The position numbers and the translations under genes were made by a program. The notes under the pieces were generated by a model. That model saw only the letters and a list, made by a program, of their open reading frames with translations, had not been told where the DNA came from and made no database searches. This document shows positions 3,164 to 37,289 of a stretch of DNA of 64,000 bases, in pieces; positions within the stretch are counted from its first letter, which is position 1, and every line of letters starts with the position of its first letter. The stretch is from contig CAKSDZ010000002.1 in NCBI GenBank assembly GCA_934446365.1, positions 122,653-186,652 of the forward strand, in the 5' to 3' direction. The DNA is from an uncultured Eubacteriales bacterium. Lineage in GTDB: Bacteria > Bacillota > Clostridia > Oscillospirales > CAG-272.

Positions 3164-3811
3164 TTATATAAATGATTTTATGATTTTGTATAAGTCTTCG
3201 GCATCCCCCGCCACATAGGCGGCGCCCGCTTTTTTGAGGACATCCTCGCCGCGGTACCCCCAAGAAACGCCGATGGGAAGCATTCCGGCGTTTTTCGCCG
3301 TCATCATATCGACGTCGGCATCGCCAATGAGCGTCGTCTCCTCCGGCTTCACATCAAAATTCTCAACAATCATAAAAGCCCGCGCCGGATTCGGCTTCAC
3401 CGGTACCTCCTTGACAGCCCCCCATATCGCATCAAAGGCACCCGGAAAAAGCGCTTCGGTCATCTCGCCGACATGCTCATGCTCCTTATTGGACAGTACA
3501 GCAAGCTTTATCCCCAACGCACGAAGCTTCGCCAGCAGCTCAGCAATACCGTCATATGCAGTCGTTTTATCAAAATAATGCTCGGCATAGGCGCTAAAAT
3601 AGGCTTCGGTCGCCTCATTCATGCGTACCTCATCAAAATCATCCGGCAAACACAGCCGAATAAAGCCTGCGTTATACACCGCATCAAGAACTTCCTTTTC
3701 CGTAATCGGCTCATATCCCAAACATGCGCGCATCAAGTTTACAGAAGTATGCCAATCCGGCAGCGTATTGGCCAACGTTCCGTCAAAATCAAAAATTGCC
3801 GCTTTTATCAT
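3164..3811 (-). CDS. HAD-superfamily hydrolase (phosphoglycolate phosphatase-like), paralog 1
   Basis: MIKAAIFDFDGTLANT (DxDGT motif) and GDADVDMMTAKNAG (motif IV). ATG at 3811 lies behind AAGGAG. Confidence 0.85.
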   Translation of the reverse strand: MIKAAIFDFDGTLANTLPDWHTSVNLMRACLGYEPITEKEVLDAVYNAGFIRLCLPDDFDEVRMNEATEAYFSAYAEHYFDKTTAYDGIAELLAKLRALGIKLAVLSNKEHEHVGEMTEALFPGAFDAIWGAVKEVPVKPNPARAFMIVENFDVKPEETTLIGDADVDMMTAKNAGMLPIGVSWGYRGEDVLKKAGAAYVAGDAEDLYKIIKSFI

Positions 3812-4063
3812 CAGCAATATCTCCTTATATGCGATTTCAGCTCCCTTTCAATATCTTCTCCGAAAACGGCACAATCCCTTTCAGCTAACGAAAACAATGT
3901 AAAAGCTTTTATATTTTCTGCTTAGCATCTGTTGGCCGCAATGTTTGAATACGGTACCAAGATTTATGTAGAAAACCATCATACTTTCATCCCATTATGG
4001 CAATAGCGCATTTTATATTTTCACCATTTCCATACATAAGGAGAATTTTCGGTTGCCATGCTT

Positions 4064-4717
4064 TTATATGATGGCTTTTGTAATCCTATACAATTCCTCC
4101 GAGTTAGCTGCCACATAGGCAGCGCCCGCTTTTTTGAGGACATCCTCGCTGCGGTACCCCCAAGAAACGCCGATGGGAAGCATTCCGGCGTTTTTCGCCG
4201 TCATCATATCGACGTCGGAATCCCCGACAAATGCCACCTCCTCCGGTTTCACGCCGAAATCCCGTGCGATCATAAAGGCACGGGCAGGGTCCGGCTTTAC
4301 CGGCACGCCTTCCACCGTTCCCCATATCGCGTCGAACGCGCCCGGAAAAAGTGTCTCGGTCATCTCGCCGACATGCTCGTTGTCCTTATTGGACATGACG
4401 GCAAGCCGGATGCCGTCCGCCCGAAGTCTTGCCAAAAGGCCGGCAACGCCCTCATACGGCGCCGTTTTGTCGAGATAATATTTGGCGTATGCGGCAAAAT
4501 AAGCCTCCACGGCCTCGTCCATACGCGCCTCGTCAAAATCGTCCGGCAGGCAAAGCCGGATAAACCGCACCGTCGCGTTGTTCACCGCGTGCAGGACTTC
4601 CTTTTCCGTAATCGGCTCATATCCGAAATGCGCGCGCATCAGGTTCAGCGAGGTACACAGGTCCGGCAGCGTATTGGCCAGCGTTCCGTCAAAATCAAAA
4701 ATTGCCGCTTTTATCAT
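4064..4717 (-). CDS. HAD-superfamily hydrolase, paralog 2 (tandem duplicate)
   Basis: MIKAAIFDFDGTLANTLPDL ... GDSDVDMMTAKNAGMLPIGVSWGYR. Collinear with the 3164-3811 product. ATG at 4717. Confidence 0.85.
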   Translation of the reverse strand: MIKAAIFDFDGTLANTLPDLCTSLNLMRAHFGYEPITEKEVLHAVNNATVRFIRLCLPDDFDEARMDEAVEAYFAAYAKYYLDKTAPYEGVAGLLARLRADGIRLAVMSNKDNEHVGEMTETLFPGAFDAIWGTVEGVPVKPDPARAFMIARDFGVKPEEVAFVGDSDVDMMTAKNAGMLPIGVSWGYRSEDVLKKAGAAYVAANSEELYRITKAII

Positions 4718-4913
4718 CGTTTCATTTTCCTTATATAATCGGTATTTCCGTATTATTGTACCAAACAACCGCATATTTGTCCATAGAAAATGAAAAAAAT
4801 ATTTGAAAAGTTCTCTTTTGGAGCGCATCCGAACATCGGATTCATTGACTTTATTGCCCGAATATGTTATATTGATAGATAAATTCGGCAGCAGCCGGTA
4901 CAGGGAGGCAGCA

Positions 4914-5576
4914 ATGGCAGAAGCAAAAACCTATTTCGCGGAATTTCCGGCGCTTTCGGACAGCGCCGCCATCGAGAATAGAATCCATGAAGTGTCAGAA
5001 GCGCGCCGGGAGCGCATCCGGACGGCCAAAAGACCGGAAACCCAAGCATCTCTGCTCGCGGCCGGCCTGATTCTCAACGCGGTCATGAAAAAGGAATTTG
5101 GGCTGTCGGAGTTCAAAATCGAAATCGGAGAGCACGGAAAGCCGTATCTTGCCGACCACAGGGAGATTCATTTCAACCTTTCCCACAGCGCGGCGGTCGT
5201 CGCATGCACCGTCTCCGATGTGGAATGCGGCGTCGATGTCGAAAAAATCGAGGCTTCGCACAACATGATGGGCATCGCCAACCGGTTCTTTTCCCTGCCC
5301 GAATATAACGCGATGCTGCTGTCGCAGAATCCGAAAGAGGCATTCTGCCGGCTGTGGACGCTGCGGGAAAGCTATGTCAAAATGCGCGGAATGGGCTTCG
5401 ATATCGGACTTTCCACGCTCCGCTGCGATTTCCACCGCGGCGTATGCTCGATTTACCAAGACGGAATTTTGCAGACCGACGCATTTTTCCATGAGTTCCG
5501 CAACATTTACGGCTATCGCGGCGCAGTATGCACCGCGAAGGAAGCCACACATGAAATCAGCCGGATTGAAATTTGA
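4914..5576 (+). CDS. 4'-phosphopantetheinyl transferase (Sfp type)
   Basis: GKPYL...FNLSHS...GVDVEKI...WTLRESYVKMRGMG motifs. ATG at 4914 follows GGGAGG. Confidence 0.8.
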   Translation: MAEAKTYFAEFPALSDSAAIENRIHEVSEARRERIRTAKRPETQASLLAAGLILNAVMKKEFGLSEFKIEIGEHGKPYLADHREIHFNLSHSAAVVACTVSDVECGVDVEKIEASHNMMGIANRFFSLPEYNAMLLSQNPKEAFCRLWTLRESYVKMRGMGFDIGLSTLRCDFHRGVCSIYQDGILQTDAFFHEFRNIYGYRGAVCTAKEATHEISRIEI

Positions 5577-15046: not shown

Positions 15047-15065
15047 TAAGCCTGAAATCAAAAAT

Positions 15066-15098
15066 CGCACCGGAAACTCCGGTGCGGTTTTCTTTTTT
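15066..15098 (+). terminator. groEL intrinsic terminator
   Basis: CGCACCGGA-aac-TCCGGTGCG followed by TTTTCTTTTTT. Confidence 0.9.
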
Positions 15099-15890
15099 CT
15101 CCTTTGAAAAGGAGAAGATACGTGCTTTTCTCACTGAGGAGAAAAGCACCAAAAGACTCACCGAGACGCTGTCTCGGACTCTCAATCTTCTGCTGGGAAG
15201 CGCATACCTACGGCTCCCAACAGTTGTTTGCTCTCGCTTCGCTCGGCAAGCCAACATTCGCCGTGCGGGAAGTTTGTGCGACTGGGAAGCTCGCGTCCGC
15301 AGGCGCAAGGCTTTCGGAGCGCACTCGCTGCCCGTTCGGCGTGTTCCGCCGTGGCTTGCGTACCTCTGTGGTACGCAAACACGTGCCGGGAGCCGACGGG
15401 ATATACTCTCGGATTGCACCAACGGTCAAGCCGAAGGCTTGCAGTTCTTTTGATGCTTTTCTTTCTGTAAAGAAAAGCATGCGTTCTCTCCTTTGCAAAG
15501 GAGAAGATATGTGCTTTTCTCACTGAGGAGAAAAGCACCAAAAGACTCACCGAGACGCTGTCTCGGACTCTCATTCTTCTGCTGGGAAGCGCATACCCAC
15601 GGCTCGAAAGGTGTTGCAGTGCTCGCACAGGCCACCACTCCCCGTGCGGCAAGCAACTGCGACTGGGAAGTTTGCGCCCGCAGGCGCAAGGCTTTCGGAG
15701 CGCACTCGCTGCCCGTTCGGCGTGTTCCGCCGTGGCTTGCGTACCCTCTGTGGTACGCAAACTGGGAGCCGACGGGATATACTCTCGGATTGCACCAACG
15801 GTCAAGCCGGAGGCTTGCGGCTTCTTTTCGTCCTTTTCTTGTCCGCACAAGAAAAGAACATGTTTCTCTCCTTTGAAAAAGGAGAAAGAA
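15097..15890. repeat. Tandem array of a ~390-bp hairpin-dense repeat (unit A 15097-15484, unit B 15485-15863, terminal partial hairpin 15864-15890)
   Basis: The units align along their length. The same family recurs at 33545-34345. Reading frames are not conserved between units. Confidence 0.9.
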
Positions 15891-17108: not shown

Positions 17109-17304
17109 TCGATTTCGGGGTAAAATTGTGGTTTTTTTCACCGGAAATCGGTAAAAATACGACAGCATCCGTCATTTTAAAAGGAATCCAATGTTTTTTC
17201 TATTGATTTTAAAGGATATAACTGATATAATAATATTGATAAAATGAAAAATGTCTCCGCCATTTCAGAAGTGGACGGACGTGCGGACAAGATCGGAGGC
17301 TGCC

Positions 17305-19002
17305 GTGAAAAAAAGAAAAAAATGGTTTCGCACCCTTGTGCGGCAGCGTTTTTTCATCATATTACTGTTGGTTTTGCAGCTGTCGGCTATCATATTCTTT
17401 TTGGCTAACCGAAGCCATGCTTCCGTCGTGATCAAGCACATGCTTCAGGTTCTCAGCTTTTTTGTCGCACTTCATATCATCGCCAAGCGGGATAAAGGTG
17501 CCTATAAGCTGACATGGGTCTTTACCATTTTGATTTTTCCGCTGTTCGGCGGCTGTCTCTATCTGCTGTTCCGCTATCAGACCCGCTCCAAAAAGCTGCG
17601 GATGACCATGCAGAATATCGCGGACACCACAAGACCCGCAGCACTTCTGCCCGGCGACAAGTACCGTCTCGCAACAAAGCCGCACTGCCCTCTTCGTGCC
17701 GGACACGGCGACTTGCCGGACGATGTCTGTATAAAAGCCTCGGAGGAAGAGCTGCAAACGTCATACTCGGCGCCCGAAACGTTTCCGTGCGAGGCTTGCT
17801 GCATGAGAGATAAATTCGACCGCGTAACGGAAAAGGTTCCCTCTCATGCCAGACAAATCGAATATTTGGACAAATTCGCTGGCTTTCCCGTATATGAAAA
17901 CACACGGACAAAATATCTTTCCCCGGGAGAAGCGTTCCATGCGGCGCTCCTGCCCGAGCTGGAAAAAGCACGGTCTTATATCTTTCTTGAATTTTTCATC
18001 ATCGAGGAAGGCATCATGTGGGACAGCGTTCTTGAAATTCTGAAACGCAAGGTCGCCGAGGGTGTCGATGTCCGTGTCATTTACGACGACATCGGATGCT
18101 TCCTGCGTCTTCCCAAGGATTATCCGAAAAAGCTCAAAGAAGCCGGCATCCGCTGCGTCGTTTTCAACAAATTCAAGCCCTTGCTTACGGCAACGCAGAA
18201 TTGCAGGGACCACAGAAAGATCATCTCCATCGACGGAAAAGTCGCATTCACAGGCGGCATCAATCTTTCGGATGAATACATCAACGCAACGCATCCTTTC
18301 GGTCATTGGAAGGATTCGGGAATCCTTGTCGAAGGCGAGGCCGCATGGAGTCTGACGCTTATTTTCCTGCAAATGTGGATTTTAAGCGGCAACAAAGAGG
18401 ATGACATCAAAAAATATTATCCGTGGAAAAACGAACCGTGTCCGATTGTCAAAACCGACAGCTGGGTTCAGCCGTATGCGGACGCGCCGTATGACGCGGA
18501 AAACGTCAGCGAGCATGTCTATATCCAAATCATCAATACGGCGAAAAAATATCTTTATATCAACACGCCGTATCTCATCGTAGACGACAGCATGATATCG
18601 GCGCTTTCGCTCGCCGCCAAAAGCGGAGTTGACGTTCGGATTGTAACGCCGTTCCGCTGGGACAAGCGTGTCGTGCATTTCACAACGCGCTCCTATTACC
18701 GTGAGCTGATTCGGGCGGGCGTGAAAATTTACGAATATTCCGAGGGCTTCATCCATTCCAAAACCTTTGTCTCGGATGATACCGTCGCGACCGTCGGAAC
18801 GGCAAATCTCGATTTCCGCAGTCTCTATCTGCAATTTGAATGCGGCGTATGGATGTATAAAAGCGAGGCGGTGACGGAGCTTCGCGACGATTTTCTGAAA
18901 ACGCTCGAAAGCTGTCATGAAATCAAGGAGGAAGAATGCCGCGGAAATGTCGTAACACGCTTTCTTCAAGATTTTCTCCGTTTGTTCGCACCCCTCATGT
19001 AA
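17305..19002 (+). CDS. cls: Cardiolipin synthase (PLD family, two HKD motifs)
   Basis: RDHRKIISIDGKVAFTGGINL and IHSKTFVSDDTVATVGTANLDFRS. The GTG at 17305 sits behind GGAGG, which is better than the ATG at 17251. Confidence 0.9.
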   Translation: MKKRKKWFRTLVRQRFFIILLLVLQLSAIIFFLANRSHASVVIKHMLQVLSFFVALHIIAKRDKGAYKLTWVFTILIFPLFGGCLYLLFRYQTRSKKLRMTMQNIADTTRPAALLPGDKYRLATKPHCPLRAGHGDLPDDVCIKASEEELQTSYSAPETFPCEACCMRDKFDRVTEKVPSHARQIEYLDKFAGFPVYENTRTKYLSPGEAFHAALLPELEKARSYIFLEFFIIEEGIMWDSVLEILKRKVAEGVDVRVIYDDIGCFLRLPKDYPKKLKEAGIRCVVFNKFKPLLTATQNCRDHRKIISIDGKVAFTGGINLSDEYINATHPFGHWKDSGILVEGEAAWSLTLIFLQMWILSGNKEDDIKKYYPWKNEPCPIVKTDSWVQPYADAPYDAENVSEHVYIQIINTAKKYLYINTPYLIVDDSMISALSLAAKSGVDVRIVTPFRWDKRVVHFTTRSYYRELIRAGVKIYEYSEGFIHSKTFVSDDTVATVGTANLDFRSLYLQFECGVWMYKSEAVTELRDDFLKTLESCHEIKEEECRGNVVTRFLQDFLRLFAPLM

Positions 19003-32213: not shown

Positions 32214-32495
32214 AAAAACAAAAAACCCGTCCCCGACATTCAAAAAAATGTCAAGGACGAGTTCAACTCGCGGTGCCACCTTGATTCACGGCAAAATCCG
32301 TGCTTCTCATCGGGATACCAACATATCCCCGGCAGGCTGACGGCTGCCATCCGTCGCAGAATACTCGGAGCATAGCTCCTTTGACTGCGCCCTCCGCGGT
32401 CCATTTGATGACTTGTTTTCCACCCGACTCTCAGCGCCGCGGGCTCTCTGTGGGAGCATCATCACCGTTATCTCCGCTTCAACGGTTTCAACTTG
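32214..32495 (-). promoter_or_regulatory. T-box riboswitch leader with Trp specifier (UGG)
   Basis: Minus strand: stem I GAGAGCCCGCGG...CCGCGGAGGGC with specifier loop ...aaaUGGa.... The T-box sequence is AATCAAGGTGGCACCGCG (32269-32280 region). The terminator CGTCCTTGACA/TGTCGGGGACG is followed by GGTTTTTTG. Confidence 0.88.
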
Positions 32496-32501
32496 GTTTG
32501 C

Positions 32502-32530
32502 ATTATATCACCGGAAAGACGGTTTGTCAA
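32502..32530 (-). promoter_or_regulatory. trp operon promoter
   Basis: Minus strand TTGACA (32530-32525), 17 nt, TATAAT (32507-32502). Confidence 0.75.
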
Positions 32531-32595
32531 GACCTCCCGTCAAAATTTTTCATGGAAAAGCTTTTCTCTCCGGCATACTTTTGGCAATATACCGG

Positions 32596-32624
32596 TTGAC
32601 AGAAAAAATCAACCGTGCTATAAT
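32596..32624 (+). promoter_or_regulatory. pdxK promoter
   Basis: TTGACA (32596-32601), 17 nt, TATAAT (32619-32624). Confidence 0.7.
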
Positions 32625-32666
32625 TTCAGAAAAATCCTTTATTTTGAATCAGAAAAGAGGTCAATT

Positions 32667-33509
32667 ATGCAAAAAAGAGTTTTGGCCGTTCACGATATCT
32701 CCTGCGTCGGGAAGTGCTCGCTGACCGTAGCGCTGCCGATTATCTCCGCCGCGGGAATCGAAACCTCCGTCCTCCCCACGGCGGTGCTTTCTACGCACAC
32801 GGGCGGCTTCGAGGGCTACACTTTCCGTGATCTGACGGAGGATATCCGTCCCATTTCCGCCCACTGGAAATCCTTAAACTTGAAAATGGACGCCGTTTAT
32901 ACCGGTTATCTCGGCTCATTCGAGCAGCTCACACTGGTAAGCGAGCTGATCCGTGATTTCCGCAGACCGGATACCGTTGTGCTTGTCGATCCCGTTATGG
33001 CGGACAACGGAAAGCTGTATCCGCTTTTCACGATGGATTTCGTGGCGGGAATGAGAAAGCTCTGCGGCATCGCGGATATTATCGTTCCGAATCTGACGGA
33101 GGCCGCACTCATGCTTGGTGAGGAATACCGAGAAAGCTATGACCGCGCCTATATCGAGGCGACACTGAAAAAGCTCGCGGCAATCGGACCCCGCAAGGTC
33201 GTGCTCAGCGGCGTATCCTTTGAGCCGGATAAGCTCGGTGCCGCGTCATACGACAGCGCGACGGACACGATATCTTATTATTTTGCCGAACGGGTAGACG
33301 GTTATTATCACGGAACGGGCGATGTGTTCGGAAGCGCACTTCTCGCCGCCGTCATGAACGGATTCTCTCTTGCGGATTCCATCCGCGTGGCGGTGGAATA
33401 CACGGTCGGCGCGATCCGGCGCACAAAAGCCGCCGGTACCGATATCCGCTATGGTGTGGATTTTGAAAATGAAATTCCGAATCTTCTGCGCTTACTGGGA
33501 AAGCTTTGA
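32667..33509 (+). CDS. pdxK: Pyridoxal/pyridoxamine kinase
   Basis: MQKRVLAVHDISCVGKCSLTVALPIISAAGIETSVLPTAVLSTHTGGF...DPVMADNGKLY...GTGDVFGS. ATG at 32667. Confidence 0.88.
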   Translation: MQKRVLAVHDISCVGKCSLTVALPIISAAGIETSVLPTAVLSTHTGGFEGYTFRDLTEDIRPISAHWKSLNLKMDAVYTGYLGSFEQLTLVSELIRDFRRPDTVVLVDPVMADNGKLYPLFTMDFVAGMRKLCGIADIIVPNLTEAALMLGEEYRESYDRAYIEATLKKLAAIGPRKVVLSGVSFEPDKLGAASYDSATDTISYYFAERVDGYYHGTGDVFGSALLAAVMNGFSLADSIRVAVEYTVGAIRRTKAAGTDIRYGVDFENEIPNLLRLLGKL

Positions 33510-33518
33510 AAAGAAAAA

Positions 33519-33546
33519 TTCCGCCATATAGGCGGATTTTTCTTTT
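33519..33546 (+). terminator. pdxK intrinsic terminator
   Basis: TCCGCC-atata-GGCGGA followed by TTTTTCTTTT. Confidence 0.85.
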
Positions 33547-34345
33547 CTCCTTTCCAAAGGAGAAAGATATGTGCTTTTCTCACTGAGGAGAAAAGCACCA
33601 AAAGACTCACCGAGACGATGTCTCGGACTCTCATCGTGCTACTGGGAAACACATACACACGGCTCCCAACAGTTGTTTGCTCTCGCTTCGCTCGGCAAGC
33701 CAACATTCGCCGTGCGGAGAGCATCTGCCACTGGAAACCCGCGCCCGCAGGCGTAAGGCTACCGGATTGCACTCGCTGCCCGTTCGGCGTGTTCCGCCGT
33801 GGATTGCACGAGTTTACCGAGTGCAAACACGTGTCGGGAGCCGACGGAATACATTTTCGGCCCGCACTAACGGTCAAGCCGCAGGCTTGCAGTTCTTTTG
33901 ATGCTTTTCTTTCTGCAAAGAAAAGCATGCGGTTTCTCCTTTCCAAAGGAGAAGATGTGTGCTTTTCTCACTGAGGAGAAAAGCACCAAAAGACTCATCG
34001 AGACGCTGTCTCGGACTCTCATCGTGCTGCTGGGAAGCGCATACACACGGCTCCCAACAGTTGTTTGCTCTCGCTTCGCTCGGCAAGCCAACATTCGCCG
34101 TGCAGAAATTTTGTGCCACTGGAAAGCTCGCGCCCGCAGGCGCAAGGCTGCCGGATTGCACTCGCTGCCCGTTCGGCGTGTTCCGCCGTGGATTGCACGA
34201 GTTTACCGAGTGCAAACACGTGTCGGGAGCCGACGGAATACATTTTCGGCCCGCACTAACGGCCAAGCCGAAGGCTTGCAGTTCTTTTGATGCTTTTCTT
34301 TCTGCAAAGAAAAGCATGCGGTTTCTCCTTTCCAAAGGAAAAAGA
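33545..34345. repeat. Second tandem array of the ~390-bp repeat family (unit C 33545-33933, unit D 33934-34322, terminal partial hairpin 34323-34345)
   Basis: Collinear with 15097-15890, in the same orientation and with the same three-hairpin junctions. Confidence 0.9.
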
Positions 34346-34375
34346 AAAAGCATGCTATCGCATGCTTTTTCTTTT
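34343..34375 (-). terminator. Bidirectional terminator after the 34376-35818 gene
   Basis: AAAAAGCATGC-tatc-GCATGCTTTTT with flanking A/T runs. Confidence 0.8.
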
Positions 34376-35818
34376 TTATTCCGCCACAATGTAATTCGCG
34401 TAAGGTCCCCAGAAATAGTTCGTAACAAAATTCGCATACGATTCCTCCGGAACATAGAAGCGGCTTCTTTCGGGAAGCCCTTCCCTTGCGCCGCCCGACA
34501 CATTGTTGACCGTGCATTTATCCGGATCCACCGCTAAAATATGGATTTTTTCAAGGCTCTCCGCCCCGCGGAACGTGCCGTCCGGAATCTGACCGATGTT
34601 ATCCGTCACAAAAAGCTCCGCGAGTGTCCCACAGCCGGCAAAGGTATCGGCGGTAAACGCCACAACCTTCTTTCCGTCGTAAGCCACAGGTGTCCTGAGC
34701 GTCGTCTGCGTTTTGCCAAGCTCCGTGACGCCGGTGATATATACGCCGAAATCCGTCACGTTATAAGTGAAGTAGACCTCGTTTTCATCGTACTCATACA
34801 CGTCCGGCTCATCCGGATTATCCGGGATCTCCGGTTCGTCCGGCACCTCGATGTCCACCGTGATCTCTCCCATCTTAGCGGCAAGATCGATCGCGAGCTG
34901 CCTTGTATGCAGAACCGCGCCCGCGCTGTTGGTATGGAAATTGCTGTCGAAGAAATAGCCGGAGCGATAAAGATATTCATTCGGATCGCCGAGCACCTCA
35001 CAGTCGAACCGCTCGGAAAGGAAATCGGTAAACGCTTCGAGCGTTTCCAGCGTCGTGTCGGGATCGATCGCCATCTCGTTCATCGGACAAAAGCCGAGAT
35101 AGACCGTTGCGCCCTTTTTCTGCGCATATTTCACATAATCATTGACATAGTCGATGAAATCCTCCGAAATCATCTCCAAATTAAAATCGATAATCATGCC
35201 GGAATCATATCCGCCTGCCATGGTGTTGTAGTCCTTTGTCCGATTATACCGGATAAAGCCGTAATCGTCAAACGACGAGGCGTTATAGATGCCGTCGGGG
35301 TCCAAAACCGTCCCCTCCCGCATATATTGCAGCTTTGAGGAGGCAAACCGCCAAAAACCGCCGAGCATCGCGGGAATATCGTCGGAATCAAGATACCGGA
35401 GAAGCGAAAAATGTCCGTCCACCGCCTGCCACATCGCCTCCGCATTGAAGTAGAGCGACCATGTCTGCGCGTTCATTTCCGGCGCAATGACGATGATATC
35501 TCCCTCGCCAATGCCAGATTTGGAATAGTCGAGCATCGTTTTTGTGCCGAGCGTGGCATACAAACCGAAGTTGACGACCGGCATACCGAGCGTTTTCTCC
35601 AAAAGCTCGGCATCGACACCGAATGCGGCGGAGCTGCCGCCAATCACAATGATTTTTGCTCCGTCCGTATTCCGGAGCCGCTCCACCTTGTCGTCAAATT
35701 CGCCGAGAAACGTCCTTTCAAACTGTGTCGGCGTAAAAAATCCGGAAGCCAGTACCGCGACAAGCGGCAAAAGCAGCAGAAGCACGATTAAGAGAAATCG
35801 AATCCATGATTTTTTCAT
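34376..35818 (-). CDS. Membrane-anchored SGNH/DltD-like domain protein with C-terminal BspA-type leucine-rich repeats
   Basis: N-terminal TM MKKSWIRFLLIVLLLLLPLVAVLA. Also IIVIGGSSAAFG...GEGDIIVIAPE...YFFDSNFHTNSAG. C-terminal VVAFTADTFAGCGTLAELFVTDNIGQIPDGTFRGAESLEKIHI. Confidence 0.7.
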   Translation of the reverse strand: MKKSWIRFLLIVLLLLLPLVAVLASGFFTPTQFERTFLGEFDDKVERLRNTDGAKIIVIGGSSAAFGVDAELLEKTLGMPVVNFGLYATLGTKTMLDYSKSGIGEGDIIVIAPEMNAQTWSLYFNAEAMWQAVDGHFSLLRYLDSDDIPAMLGGFWRFASSKLQYMREGTVLDPDGIYNASSFDDYGFIRYNRTKDYNTMAGGYDSGMIIDFNLEMISEDFIDYVNDYVKYAQKKGATVYLGFCPMNEMAIDPDTTLETLEAFTDFLSERFDCEVLGDPNEYLYRSGYFFDSNFHTNSAGAVLHTRQLAIDLAAKMGEITVDIEVPDEPEIPDNPDEPDVYEYDENEVYFTYNVTDFGVYITGVTELGKTQTTLRTPVAYDGKKVVAFTADTFAGCGTLAELFVTDNIGQIPDGTFRGAESLEKIHILAVDPDKCTVNNVSGGAREGLPERSRFYVPEESYANFVTNYFWGPYANYIVAE

Positions 35819-35831
35819 TCACCGCACCCCC

Positions 35832-37289
35832 TTAAAACTGGAAATAGATAAACGCGGATGCGCCGCCGACGGAGAGCAGCAGCGACCATGCGGCCGTCAC
35901 CGCAAGCGTCACAACGGCGAGCGTATACTGTCTCGATGCCGTCCCGTTTTCCGTGAGGCGCGGTTCGTCACACATCGTGTCGAGCATCGACATCACCAGA
36001 ATCGAAAGCACCGTAACCAAAGCCGCCGTCACGGTCATTCCCATCGAAGAAAGTGTCGCCGTGACAGAACCCGCCTCCCACGAGGTGAAGAGCTTGCCAA
36101 GGAGCACCCACAGGTCCGCCGTACTGTTCGCCCGGAAGAAAATCCATGCGAAGCAGACGAGGAGAAATGTGACAATGCGCTGACCCAGCATGAACACCTT
36201 GGAATCCGTTTTGATTTTGAGCTTTTCATACAGCCGGTACCTCGGCTTTTTGGTAATCGCGCCGACGATTTGATAAAGCCCGTGCAGCACGCCCCACAAA
36301 ACGAAGGTCCAGCTCGCGCCGTGCCAAAGTCCGCTGACAAGAAATACTACGAAAATATTGAAATAATTCCGCGCGCGGGAGCAGCGATTTCCGCCGAGCG
36401 GTATGTAGAGATAATCCTTAAACCAGCTGGAAAGGCTGATATGCCATCTCGCCCAAAACTCCTTGATGCTGCGGGCACGGTACGGACGGTTGAAATTCTG
36501 CATCAGGCGAATGCCCATGATCCTCGCACAGCCGATGGCGATATCCGTATAGCCGGAAAAATCGCAGTAAATCTGCACCGCAAAAAGCACAGCGCCAAGA
36601 AGCACGCCAAATCCCGTCGCGCCCGCCGCGTCGTTGAACACGGCGTTGACAAATTCCGCGATGATATCGGCGACCACAATCTTCTTAAAGAAGCCGACCG
36701 CCATTTTTTGAAGTCCCGCAAATGCGTTTGAAGCCTCGAGCTTATGCTCTTCCTTCAACTGCGGCATCAGATTTTCCGGACGCTCAATCGGTCCCGCGAC
36801 AAGCTGCGGGAAGAAGGAGACAAACAGCGCGTACCAGCCGAAATGCCGCTCCGCCTTAATACTTCCCCGATATACGTCGATGACATAGGAAAGCGTTTGG
36901 AACGTATAGAACGAGATACCGACCGGAAGAATCAAATTTAAGGAAAATTCCTCCGCCGAGCCGCCGAAAAGATTCCACATCGAGATGACGGAACCCGCAA
37001 GAAAATTGAAATACTTGAAAAAGAACAGCACGCCGAGCGATGTGATAAGCGTGATGCAGAGCCATAATCTCTTTTTGCGGCGGCTCTCCGTTTTTTCAAT
37101 GAGAATCGCGCTTACATAGGAGACCGCCGTCGTAAACAGAATGAGAAAAATCAGCGGCGGATTCCAAATCATGTAGAAAAAATAGCTCGCCGCAAGCAGC
37201 AGCGGCCATTTGCACCTTTTCGGCAGGATAAAATAGAGAAGAAGCACCAGCGGATAAAAAATCAGAAATTCAGCGGAATTGAAAATCAT
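35832..37289 (-). CDS. MBOAT-family O-acyltransferase (AlgI/DltB/PatA-like)
   Basis: MIFNSAEFLIFYPLVLLLYF...FWARWHISLSSWFKDYLYIPLGGNR...SGLWHGASW (conserved His). Confidence 0.9.
   Translation of the reverse strand: MIFNSAEFLIFYPLVLLLYFILPKRCKWPLLLAASYFFYMIWNPPLIFLILFTTAVSYVSAILIEKTESRRKKRLWLCITLITSLGVLFFFKYFNFLAGSVISMWNLFGGSAEEFSLNLILPVGISFYTFQTLSYVIDVYRGSIKAERHFGWYALFVSFFPQLVAGPIERPENLMPQLKEEHKLEASNAFAGLQKMAVGFFKKIVVADIIAEFVNAVFNDAAGATGFGVLLGAVLFAVQIYCDFSGYTDIAIGCARIMGIRLMQNFNRPYRARSIKEFWARWHISLSSWFKDYLYIPLGGNRCSRARNYFNIFVVFLVSGLWHGASWTFVLWGVLHGLYQIVGAITKKPRYRLYEKLKIKTDSKVFMLGQRIVTFLLVCFAWIFFRANSTADLWVLLGKLFTSWEAGSVTATLSSMGMTVTAALVTVLSILVMSMLDTMCDEPRLTENGTASRQYTLAVVTLAVTAAWSLLLSVGGASAFIYFQF

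Follow-up and report, generated by a model that had tools for sequence, protein, structure and literature searches.

A modular, hairpin-rich tandem repeat family in the intergenic regions of uncultured human-gut Clostridia

Two tandem copies of a 389-nt repeat, units C and D, lie between two convergent genes of an uncultured Eubacteriales bacterium. We analyzed them in a 64,000-nucleotide stretch of contig CAKSDZ010000002.1 (GenBank assembly GCA_934446365.1), referred to here as the window. The units belong to a previously undescribed, non-coding, hairpin-rich repeat family from a single lineage of human-gut Clostridia without cultured members (Eubacteriales, Ruminococcaceae/Oscillospiraceae-like); we found no description of it in the literature. 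Its closest kinds are the bacterial interspersed mosaic elements (BIME/REP), NIME/dRS3 and BOX. The shared logic is extragenic, mosaic, tandem and palindromic, but the unit found here is several times larger and more structured. We favor, as a judgment that stands evenly balanced, the reading that units C and D are tandem copies of a non-autonomous, selfish, non-coding interspersed mosaic repeat akin to BIME, NIME and BOX.

The array and its family

Tandem Repeats Finder makes a single array call in the 64-kb window, at 33544-34345, with a period of 389, 2.1 copies, 94% matches and 0 indels. A repeat search and a four-way alignment resolve four collinear units in the same orientation: A (15096-15484), B (15485-15866), C (33545-33933) and D (33934-34322). 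This bears out the initial annotation of the window, which had placed C and D collinear with A and B. Terminal hairpins follow unit B, to 15885, and unit D, to 34345. The 34-mer GCACTCGCTGCCCGTTCGGCGTGTTCCGCCGTGG is identical in units A-D and has 4 exact matches in the window, against 0.00 expected. Pairwise identity is 95.6% for C and D, 88.1% for A and D, 86.6% for A and C, 83.2% for A and B, and about 77% for B with C or D.

How widely does the repeat occur? We scanned metagenomes with a three-part pattern and applied an nhmmer profile to the 116 stretches that it picked out. The profile gave about 70 plus-strand copies at about 40 loci, nearly all of them in human-gut assemblies, along with one Eubacteriales metagenome-assembled genome (L006; L numbers are our handles for the contigs compared). 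The tandem pair in that genome has other genes around it, and one of the two units has a wholly different core. L006 was also the one true match when a 20-mer from the core of the window units (the alpha core) was scanned over species-representative genomes, the five actinobacterial matches being due to chance; the 20-mer pattern was too narrow because a second core type, beta, is the commoner form. Viral contigs, phage records and plasmid records yielded no true copy, and two viral pattern matches were not confirmed by nhmmer.

Arrays vary in size and composition. One unit is present in L026, L033, L040, L058 and L136, two in the window, L006, L082 and L056, three in L105 and about four in L095. 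The L105 array mixes two beta units with one alpha unit. The earlier description of exactly two units plus a terminal hairpin in the same context thus holds in the window but not family-wide, where arrays have 1-4 units and several left ends lack the junction hairpin or have another palindrome, with a T-rich arm before an A-rich arm, in its place. In sample ERZ1673741, eight separate loci stand at 11.9-13.2x coverage, which indicates that one genome holds many arrays. As repeats that break assemblies should, many copies fall at the ends of contigs. The arrays occupy intergenic gaps bounded by terminators or promoters of housekeeping genes, and the neighboring genes (groEL, rpsR, rplT, htpG, topA, uvrB, pantothenate-kinase-like, PFK) are mostly of that kind.

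A protein-coding role for the unit was considered and rejected. Variable columns have no 3-base periodicity (0.139/0.122/0.131), indels of 1-2 nt are frequent, and there is no Pfam match. Several frames are open at once on both strands, and 1-3 frames span the whole unit on either strand, because TA dinucleotides (4-10 per 400 nt) and, on both strands, stop trinucleotides are strongly depleted. In unit D, stop trinucleotides number 8, compared with 33.6 ± 4.4 after mononucleotide shuffling. The scarcity of TA accounts for most of this: with dinucleotide-preserving shuffles, the stop depletion has z of -1.2 to -1.9 in beta units and -3.6 to -4.9 in alpha units. Public gene calls nevertheless carry spurious proteins on the units, such as P0121 (187 aa) on 15 contigs and P0147 on 113 contigs. 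As a path to distant relatives these "proteins" led nowhere, since their 35 matches were all the same close DNA family; the low identity among the "homologous proteins" comes from frame changes in very similar DNA.

Unit anatomy and conservation of the fold

Each unit consists of a core of about 365 nt and a 22-nt junction palindrome, HP0, with a range across units of 365-430 nt. The order of parts is HP0, the HP1 hairpin, the 5' strand of P1, the P1a hairpin, a CGGCTC/GAGCCG helix, P3, a GCGCC-cgca-GGCGC hairpin, the core module, the triloop hairpin and the HP3' hairpin. P1 is an A-rich strand able to pair with a T-rich strand near the 3' end of the unit, and the CGGCTC/GAGCCG helix closes the middle. 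The elements of the two arrays in the window are as follows.

15096-15885, plus strand: units A and B with their terminal HP0 (sister array), flanked by groEL (plus strand) and rpsR (minus strand)
33545-33933, plus strand: unit C, with HP1-a, P1a-1, P3-I, alpha core, triloop hairpin p and HP3'-x (nhmmer 450 bits)
33545-33565, palindrome without assigned strand: HP0 copy 1, TTCTCCTTT-ccaa-AGGAGAA, a pyrimidine arm followed by a purine arm
33571-33598, plus strand: HP1 of unit C, GTGCTTTTCTC-actgag-GAGAAAAGCAC (general form GTGCTTTTCTC-N6-GAGAAAAGCAC), the 5' limit of family homology
33610-33626, plus strand: P1a hairpin of unit C, CCGAGAC-gat-GTCTCGG, followed on the minus strand by TGAGTCTTTT and terminator-like there
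33767-33775, plus strand: TTGCACTCG, the exact complement of CGAGTGCAA at 33818-33826, part of the direct repeat GGATTGCAC
33804-33826, plus strand: hairpin version 2, TTGCAC-ga-g-tttac-c-ga-GTGCAA (unit D counterpart at 34193-34215)
33875-33889, plus strand: GNA-triloop hairpin of unit C, CAAGCC-gca-GGCTTG followed by CAGTTCTTTT, terminator-like on the plus strand (unit D copy at 34264-34278)
33901-33928, plus strand: HP3' of unit C, ATGCTTTTCTTT-ctgc-AAAGAAAAGCAT (general form ATGCTTTTCTTT-N4-AAAGAAAAGCAT), resembling HP1 (unit D copy at 34290-34317)
33934-34322, plus strand: unit D, with the module versions of unit C, 95.6% identical to it (nhmmer 472 bits)
34323-34345, palindrome without assigned strand: terminal HP0, slightly degenerate, TTTCTCCTTTCCAAAGGAAAAAG, with a purine arm that runs on into the A run of the terminator beyond it

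HP0 has the general form TTCTCCTTT-N4-AAAGGAGAA, a near-perfect 9+9 palindrome in which the arms are conserved and the 4-nt center varies. In the window, the motif CTCCTTT N(2-7) AAGGAG is confined to the two arrays, with 10 matches over both strands (5 palindromic sites) against 0 expected. HP1 and HP3' both contain GCTTTTCT...AGAAAAGC, so the unit ends read as a terminal inverted repeat, and each is also a hairpin by itself. Every unit has a terminator-like hairpin at its 3' end on the plus strand and at its 5' end on the minus strand; the arrays hold 8 and 12 terminator-like sites, compared with 2.1 expected.

There are at least six modules, each with 2-4 alternative versions that are internally complementary: three of HP1, two of P1a, three of P3, four of the triloop hairpin (including AAGCC/GGCTT, AAGCG/CGCTT and GAACG/CGTTC) and two of HP3'. 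The core is alpha (the window units), beta (the commoner type) or absent. Among 36 units we counted 27 combinations of versions, and most pairwise combinations are present, which amounts to near-free reassortment. Such reassortment is a signature of recombination or gene conversion among copies. Some units also have an optional 93-nt AT-rich insert between the 5' strand of P1 and P1a (L058 1967-2059, minus strand; L135 1-100; L051; L086; L100), and this insert carries a hairpin of its own, TGCAATGC-tccc-GCATTGCA.

The initial annotation singled out one stem that changes on both arms between the two loci. At locus 1 it reads TTGCGTACC/GGTACGCAA (15356-15378), here called version 1; units C, D, L056:264 and L058 have version 2, and the remaining alpha-core units version 1. 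Five stem positions differ between the loci, of which three are compensatory and two become G.A/A.G. The coordinates of the proposed compensatory change were therefore right, as was its character at three of five positions; its standing as an independent event was not, since the loci differ by a swap of two pre-existing versions. The two arms lie 5-11 nt apart and are inherited together, so selection is not needed to explain their joint change.

The same stem had been credited with a second, mutually exclusive pairing, between 33767-33775 and 33818-33826. These segments are exactly complementary, but the 9-bp alternative arises because the direct repeat GGATTGCAC occurs twice in the unit (33764-33772 and 33801-33809) and is shared with the left arm of the 33804-33826 hairpin. 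Taken in isolation, the local hairpin has an energy of -7.0 kcal/mol and the alternative one of -10.5 kcal/mol. Minimum-free-energy folding of the local sequence still retains the hairpin; the full-unit fold pairs the arm with a third site, 33677-33685.

Across the wider family, stems are kept while their sequence changes. In the window, the loop variants (gaa, gga or gca, and gct or gat) are those given in the initial annotation. The fold of unit D is more stable than that of shuffled sequence (z = -6.2 on the plus strand and -7.7 on the minus strand). Units A-D have 7 double-change pairs against 2.5 ± 1.1 in shuffles (0 of 500), and 96.2% of cells are paired, compared with 39-50% when the partner column is slid. 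An alignment of 25 beta-core units gives a consensus of 124 pairs with 95.7% of cells paired, against 92.3 ± 0.2 in shuffles and 39-48% in slid controls; here there are 20 double-change pairs against 14.9 ± 1.6 (0 of 500 shuffles).

Covariation in the 25 units is found nearly entirely in the short local hairpins HP1, P1a, P3, triloop hairpin and HP3', whose arms swap as a block. HP1 (helix 2) has two covarying pairs (GC 13/CG 11/AU 1 and CG 14/GC 11) and the triloop hairpin (helix 16) has three; at three pairs of P1a (helix 4), 7 of 25 units differ by a CG to UA or AU to GC change. The long-range helices (3, 7, 9 and 13) are invariant, noisy or broken on module reassortment, and helix 9 is unpaired at two positions in 8-9 of the 25 units. 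The argument that the fold is under selection is supported in part, by pairing conserved beyond controls in both the 4 and the 25 units; it is tempered by the finding that the signal comes mostly from local hairpins with arms inherited as a block.

Which strand is functional? RNAalifold was run on both, as the initial annotation had suggested, and did not decide the strand: consensus energies are -227 (plus) and -223 (minus) on the 25-unit alignments, and -200 (plus) and -207 (minus) on a 23-unit set. In the 25 units, the plus strand compares with the minus strand at 95.7% vs 94.9% paired, 0.160 vs 0.128 in covariation, 120 vs 99 double-change cells and 20 vs 19 double-change pairs. Pairs predicted on both strands contain 35 G.U cells against 21 A.C cells, and 43 pair columns switch between Watson-Crick and G.U on the plus strand against 25 for A.C. 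The plus strand is slightly favored as the functional strand, with the two strands giving nearly equal figures.

Insertion, rearrangement and flanking genes

We searched for orthologues of the 480-aa protein encoded to the right of units C and D and read the contigs that carry them. In relatives at 82%, 77% and 70% protein identity, the 480-aa gene and the pdxK-like gene on the other side of the array converge at distances of 127, 48 and 85 nt. These empty sites (L125-L129) have one bidirectional terminator and no unit, whereas the gap in the window is 866 nt. Because the gap of related species has no unit, we conclude that the array at the pdxK site is an insertion. This is the comparison of the region downstream of pdxK that had been proposed, and it found the site empty at 70-82% protein identity. 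The filled arrangement, with a gap of 867 nt, was measured in L130 and L132, and there are 10 further similar places.

The genes and terminators on either side of units C and D are as follows.

32493-33509, plus strand: pdxK-like kinase, left flanking gene, longest open reading frame (Pfam Phos_pyr_kin 5.1e-23, PfkB)
33520-33546, plus strand: intrinsic terminator of the pdxK-like gene, TCCGCC-atata-GGCGGA and a T run, terminator-like on both strands (stem at 33520-33536)
34340-34378, minus strand: bidirectional terminator of the 480-aa gene, with an A run, GCATGC-tatc-GCATGC and a T run (hairpin at 34350-34365)
34376-35818, minus strand: right flanking gene, a 480-aa protein without Pfam domain, downstream of an MBOAT gene

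The true start of the pdxK-like gene is probably later than that of the open reading frame, because its orthologues are 280 aa long (L125-L130). The T run of its terminator runs straight into the first HP0. Terminator-like hairpins border both window arrays on both sides, in agreement with the convergent-terminator setting first described for the two loci.

Other sites differ in copy number and in their flanks. The PFK/YbaK-like site has one unit in L136 and two in L006. L058 has a single unit, a right flank 99% identical to the window and a different left gene; the terminator of the 480-aa gene forms the right flank in L033 as well as in L058. In L064, the pdxK side is 96.7% identical, the unit is truncated and the right flank is different. 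L033 and L105 share a left flank, have one and three units, respectively, and differ in their right flanks. In L131 (ENA ERZ27956514 k141_64458; genes at 1120-2562 and 3444-5075), an array joins a frameshifted 480-aa gene to groEL/groES. Recombination between the two window arrays would give this junction and would remove or move the 18.4 kb that separates them (including rpsR, ssb and rpsF). The junctions in L058, L064, L033/L105 and L131 may be true rearrangements at repeats or, equally, short-read assembly chimeras.

In the relative GCA_054288285.1 (L128 4538-7452), pdxK directly adjoins a cardiolipin-synthase-like gene and rpsF. About 13.5 kb separates pdxK from these genes in the window (17251-19002 and 32493-33509), which indicates that the inter-array region was rearranged or gained.

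Several further features of the loci can be recorded here. One truncated form of the unit, ending after GCGCCCGCAGGCGCAAA (model position ~219), is seen in L064 (9694-10233, minus strand), L027, L060, L065, L108 and L041. Beyond it lie AT-rich DNA, a promoter close to consensus (TTGCAC, 16 nt, TATAAT) and an open reading frame of 97 aa without a Pfam family. In L006 (58-116, minus strand), the loop of the leftmost junction palindrome is TTGGCA, followed by 17 nt, a TATAAA box, the ribosome-binding site AGGAG and the ATG of a YbaK-like (tRNA_edit) gene. Judged from these motifs, the repeat appears to supply the -35 box of the neighboring gene's promoter. The groEL terminator of the window (15061-15091, AAAAATCGCACCGGaaacTCCGGTGCGGTTTT) is nearly identical to the sole terminator, AAAAACGCACCGGaaatCCGGTGCGTTTTT, of a relative's empty pdxK/480-aa site (L129 4455-4495).

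Elsewhere around the arrays, the 480-aa gene lies directly downstream of an MBOAT acyltransferase gene and an 85-94-aa gene in all relatives (34376-37289, minus strand, in the window), and the three look like a conserved cell-envelope acylation module. The only other long direct repeats in the window come from two neighboring paralogous HAD-family hydrolase genes (3164-3817 and 4064-4828, minus strand). Their repeats D5 (3158-3457/4058-4357) and D7 (3669-3812/4575-4718) are 78-85% identical in DNA over 300 and 144 nt.

Spread of the repeat and other readings

How would such a repeat arise and persist? If it is a selfish mosaic element, it probably owes its spread to machinery that some other part of the genome encodes. 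Arrays would grow or shrink by unequal crossing-over at the junction palindromes, and gene conversion between copies would swap or homogenize modules. The need of the single-stranded form to fold would preserve the hairpins; that form could be a read-through transcript or an intermediate of single-stranded DNA. At the 3' ends of genes the repeat would be tolerated because it halts transcription both ways.

This reading draws on likeness to three known kinds of element. Like the BIME/REP elements of enterobacteria, the repeat is extragenic, lies mostly at operon 3' ends and between convergent genes, forms palindromic mosaic tandem arrays, has many copies and is non-coding. Membership in BIME/REP was rejected, however: REP units are imperfect palindromes of about 35 bp that alternate in orientation, whereas the unit here (389 nt in the window, 365-430 nt overall) is in direct tandem orientation and has about 15 helices. 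There is also no GC-skew strand bias, and on the genome fragments examined no gene for a REP-associated tyrosine transposase (RAYT) lies beside the arrays. With the NIME (dRS3 + RS units) of Neisseria, it shares the palindrome-unit-palindrome layout inside arrays, mixed units per array, an intergenic location and a link with rearrangements. RS units differ in being 50-150 bp long, in not being known for a conserved nested fold and in host lineage, and HP0 has no sequence relation to dRS3; it flanks units inside arrays and is dispensable at array ends. Pneumococcal BOX elements (boxA-boxB(n)-boxC) are likewise modular and intergenic, with a variable number of internal modules and a stable predicted transcript structure. 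However, BOX modules are 45-60 bp and the element is usually <300 bp, whereas here whole units are in tandem and the hairpins have alternative versions. MITEs and PATEs resemble the repeat in being non-coding and multi-copy with similar hairpins at their ends, but tandem arrays and free module swapping are atypical of them.

Several observations weigh against a selfish mosaic repeat. No mobilizing protein was found, transposase and recombinase genes being absent beside the arrays examined. As for a MITE target-site duplication, 19 left and 19 right junctions share no direct repeat besides HP0, and for the tetra- or pentanucleotide target of an IS200/IS605-derived PATE, the sequence left of HP1 is A/T-rich and unconserved. 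With respect to local GC skew, 13 arrays are oriented one way and 21 the other, and both orientations occur on single contigs; this lack of bias argues against a replication-strand-dependent IS200/IS605 or REP-transposase mechanism. Much of the rearrangement evidence comes from short-read metagenome assemblies, which are prone to mis-joins at repeats. Two points of strand preference belong here as well: the plus strand is slightly ahead in pairing, covariation and double-change cells, and a hybrid P1a hairpin in L056:6314 pairs via three G.U wobbles on the plus strand only. Finally, we know of no bacterial interspersed repeat nearly as elaborate as this nested multi-helix unit of 365-430 nt, which would suit a functional RNA.

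We consider it doubtful that the units represent either a new multi-copy tandem class of large RNA (~350-400 nt, a scaffold with exchangeable domains) or a new non-coding cassette moved via the junction palindrome. Of these two, the RNA is the one to weigh first: it is possible, if far from probable, that each unit is the gene for, or is processed into, a trans-acting structured RNA of about 350 nt on the plus strand, running from HP1 to the GNA-triloop terminator, with a conserved scaffold that carries exchangeable domains (alpha core, beta core, P3 versions). An RNA would account for the elaborate nested fold with its 5'/3' closure (z -6.2 and -7.7), the pairing conserved beyond shuffled and slid controls, the plus strand's slight lead in pairing (95.7% vs 94.9%), covariation and double-change cells and in Watson-Crick/G.U switching (43 pair columns vs 25 for A.C), and the terminator-like hairpin that ends each unit on the plus strand. 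Moreover, where the left HP0 is missing (L026, L029, L095 and L056), a TATAAA box lies 6-10 nt upstream of HP1. These boxes lack a -35 partner, however. Neither the arrays nor the DNA before them yielded a sigma-70-like promoter, and the terminator of another gene immediately precedes most arrays. The long-range helices are without covariation or are broken by module reassortment (helix 9), some units have the entire core replaced or deleted, and the strand bias is no more than 35 vs 21 among pairs that both strands predict.

Comparison with known RNAs points the same way. In the 64-kb window and 9 related loci, none of 4227 Rfam families matched at gathering score. Permissive searches (E up to 10 or 1) brought up terminator-like, leader and microRNA models and nothing else; all scored far below threshold, and we take these as chance. 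The Rfam models of OLE, GOLLD, ROOL, raiA, HEARO, the group II intron and self-cleaving ribozymes gave no match in the same sequences. OLE, GOLLD, ROOL, raiA and HEARO resemble the unit in being several hundred nt long, having many helices and being restricted to lineages that include anaerobic Firmicutes, but they are usually single-copy or phage-borne, have well-supported long-range covariation and are not in dispersed tandem arrays.

Could the units instead be cassettes? By that account, site-specific recombination would insert a circle of one unit and HP0 at an HP0-like site, and repeated insertion would build HP0-unit-HP0 arrays, in the manner of dRS3/NIME, integrons or Xer-like systems. 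HP0 is present at every unit junction and arrays end in it, its conserved arms and variable 4-nt center are like a recombinase core site, and units of differing module make-up are adjacent in one array (L105). We nevertheless judge the cassette model unlikely. No recombinase gene adjoins the arrays examined, there is no solo HP0 in the 64-kb window or in three empty sites, and unrelated T-arm/A-arm palindromes take its place, or it is absent, at several array ends. The similar HP0 loops within an array fit local duplication equally well. An integron/attC array as such was rejected, as HP0 is a near-perfect 9+9 palindrome with a 4-nt center and housekeeping genes adjoin.

Less still do we expect that arrays are kept for a role in cis for the host, which seems quite improbable. 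In that role they would insulate convergent, highly expressed genes from each other or stop transcription from both sides, or their structures at the 3' end would stabilize the mRNAs upstream. The arrays do stand at the 3' ends of groEL, rpsR, rplT, htpG and PFK, each unit has bidirectional terminator-like hairpins (8 and 12 sites, 2.1 expected), and the HP0 loop in L006 would provide a -35 box (TTGGCA) for the YbaK-like gene. However, both neighboring genes already own terminators, relatives manage with one bidirectional terminator and no unit, and 400 nt of conserved structure is far beyond what termination needs.

It is hardly credible that the two loci are a recent segmental duplication that has drifted, a possibility the initial annotation had named, or that the units encode protein: although units are 77-96% identical and public open-reading-frame calls such as P0121 exist, the flanks of the two loci are unrelated, dozens of family copies lie at other sites, and the units have frameshifting indels, several open frames on both strands, no codon periodicity and no Pfam match.

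Three further candidates were tried and rejected. For a type I toxin-antitoxin system (Ldr/Rdl, Ibs/Sib type), the open reading frames after the Shine-Dalgarno-like arm of HP0 are 5-26 codons long, unconserved and non-hydrophobic. For a CRISPR array, the 365-nt "spacers" are homologous to each other. For a protein sponge, enrichment of the GGA motif is only about 2 SD above shuffles.

Why does such a repeat matter? Bacterial interspersed mosaic elements are few, and this repeat adds to them a large, highly structured, modular family, from a group of human-gut Clostridia that is common though uncultured. There are practical consequences: the repeats are annotated as spurious proteins in public databases, and they break or mis-join metagenome assemblies, as the L131 junction, which fuses neighbors of both window arrays, may illustrate. 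The free reassortment of internally complementary hairpin versions also offers a clean natural case for separating selection on a fold from the linkage of palindrome arms. If the units do yield discrete RNAs, they would form a new class of large RNA, and if the scaffold carries exchangeable domains, one genome would make a repertoire of related RNAs. Whether as such a repertoire or as a cassette moved by its junction palindrome, the repeat would then be a hitherto undescribed kind of bacterial element.

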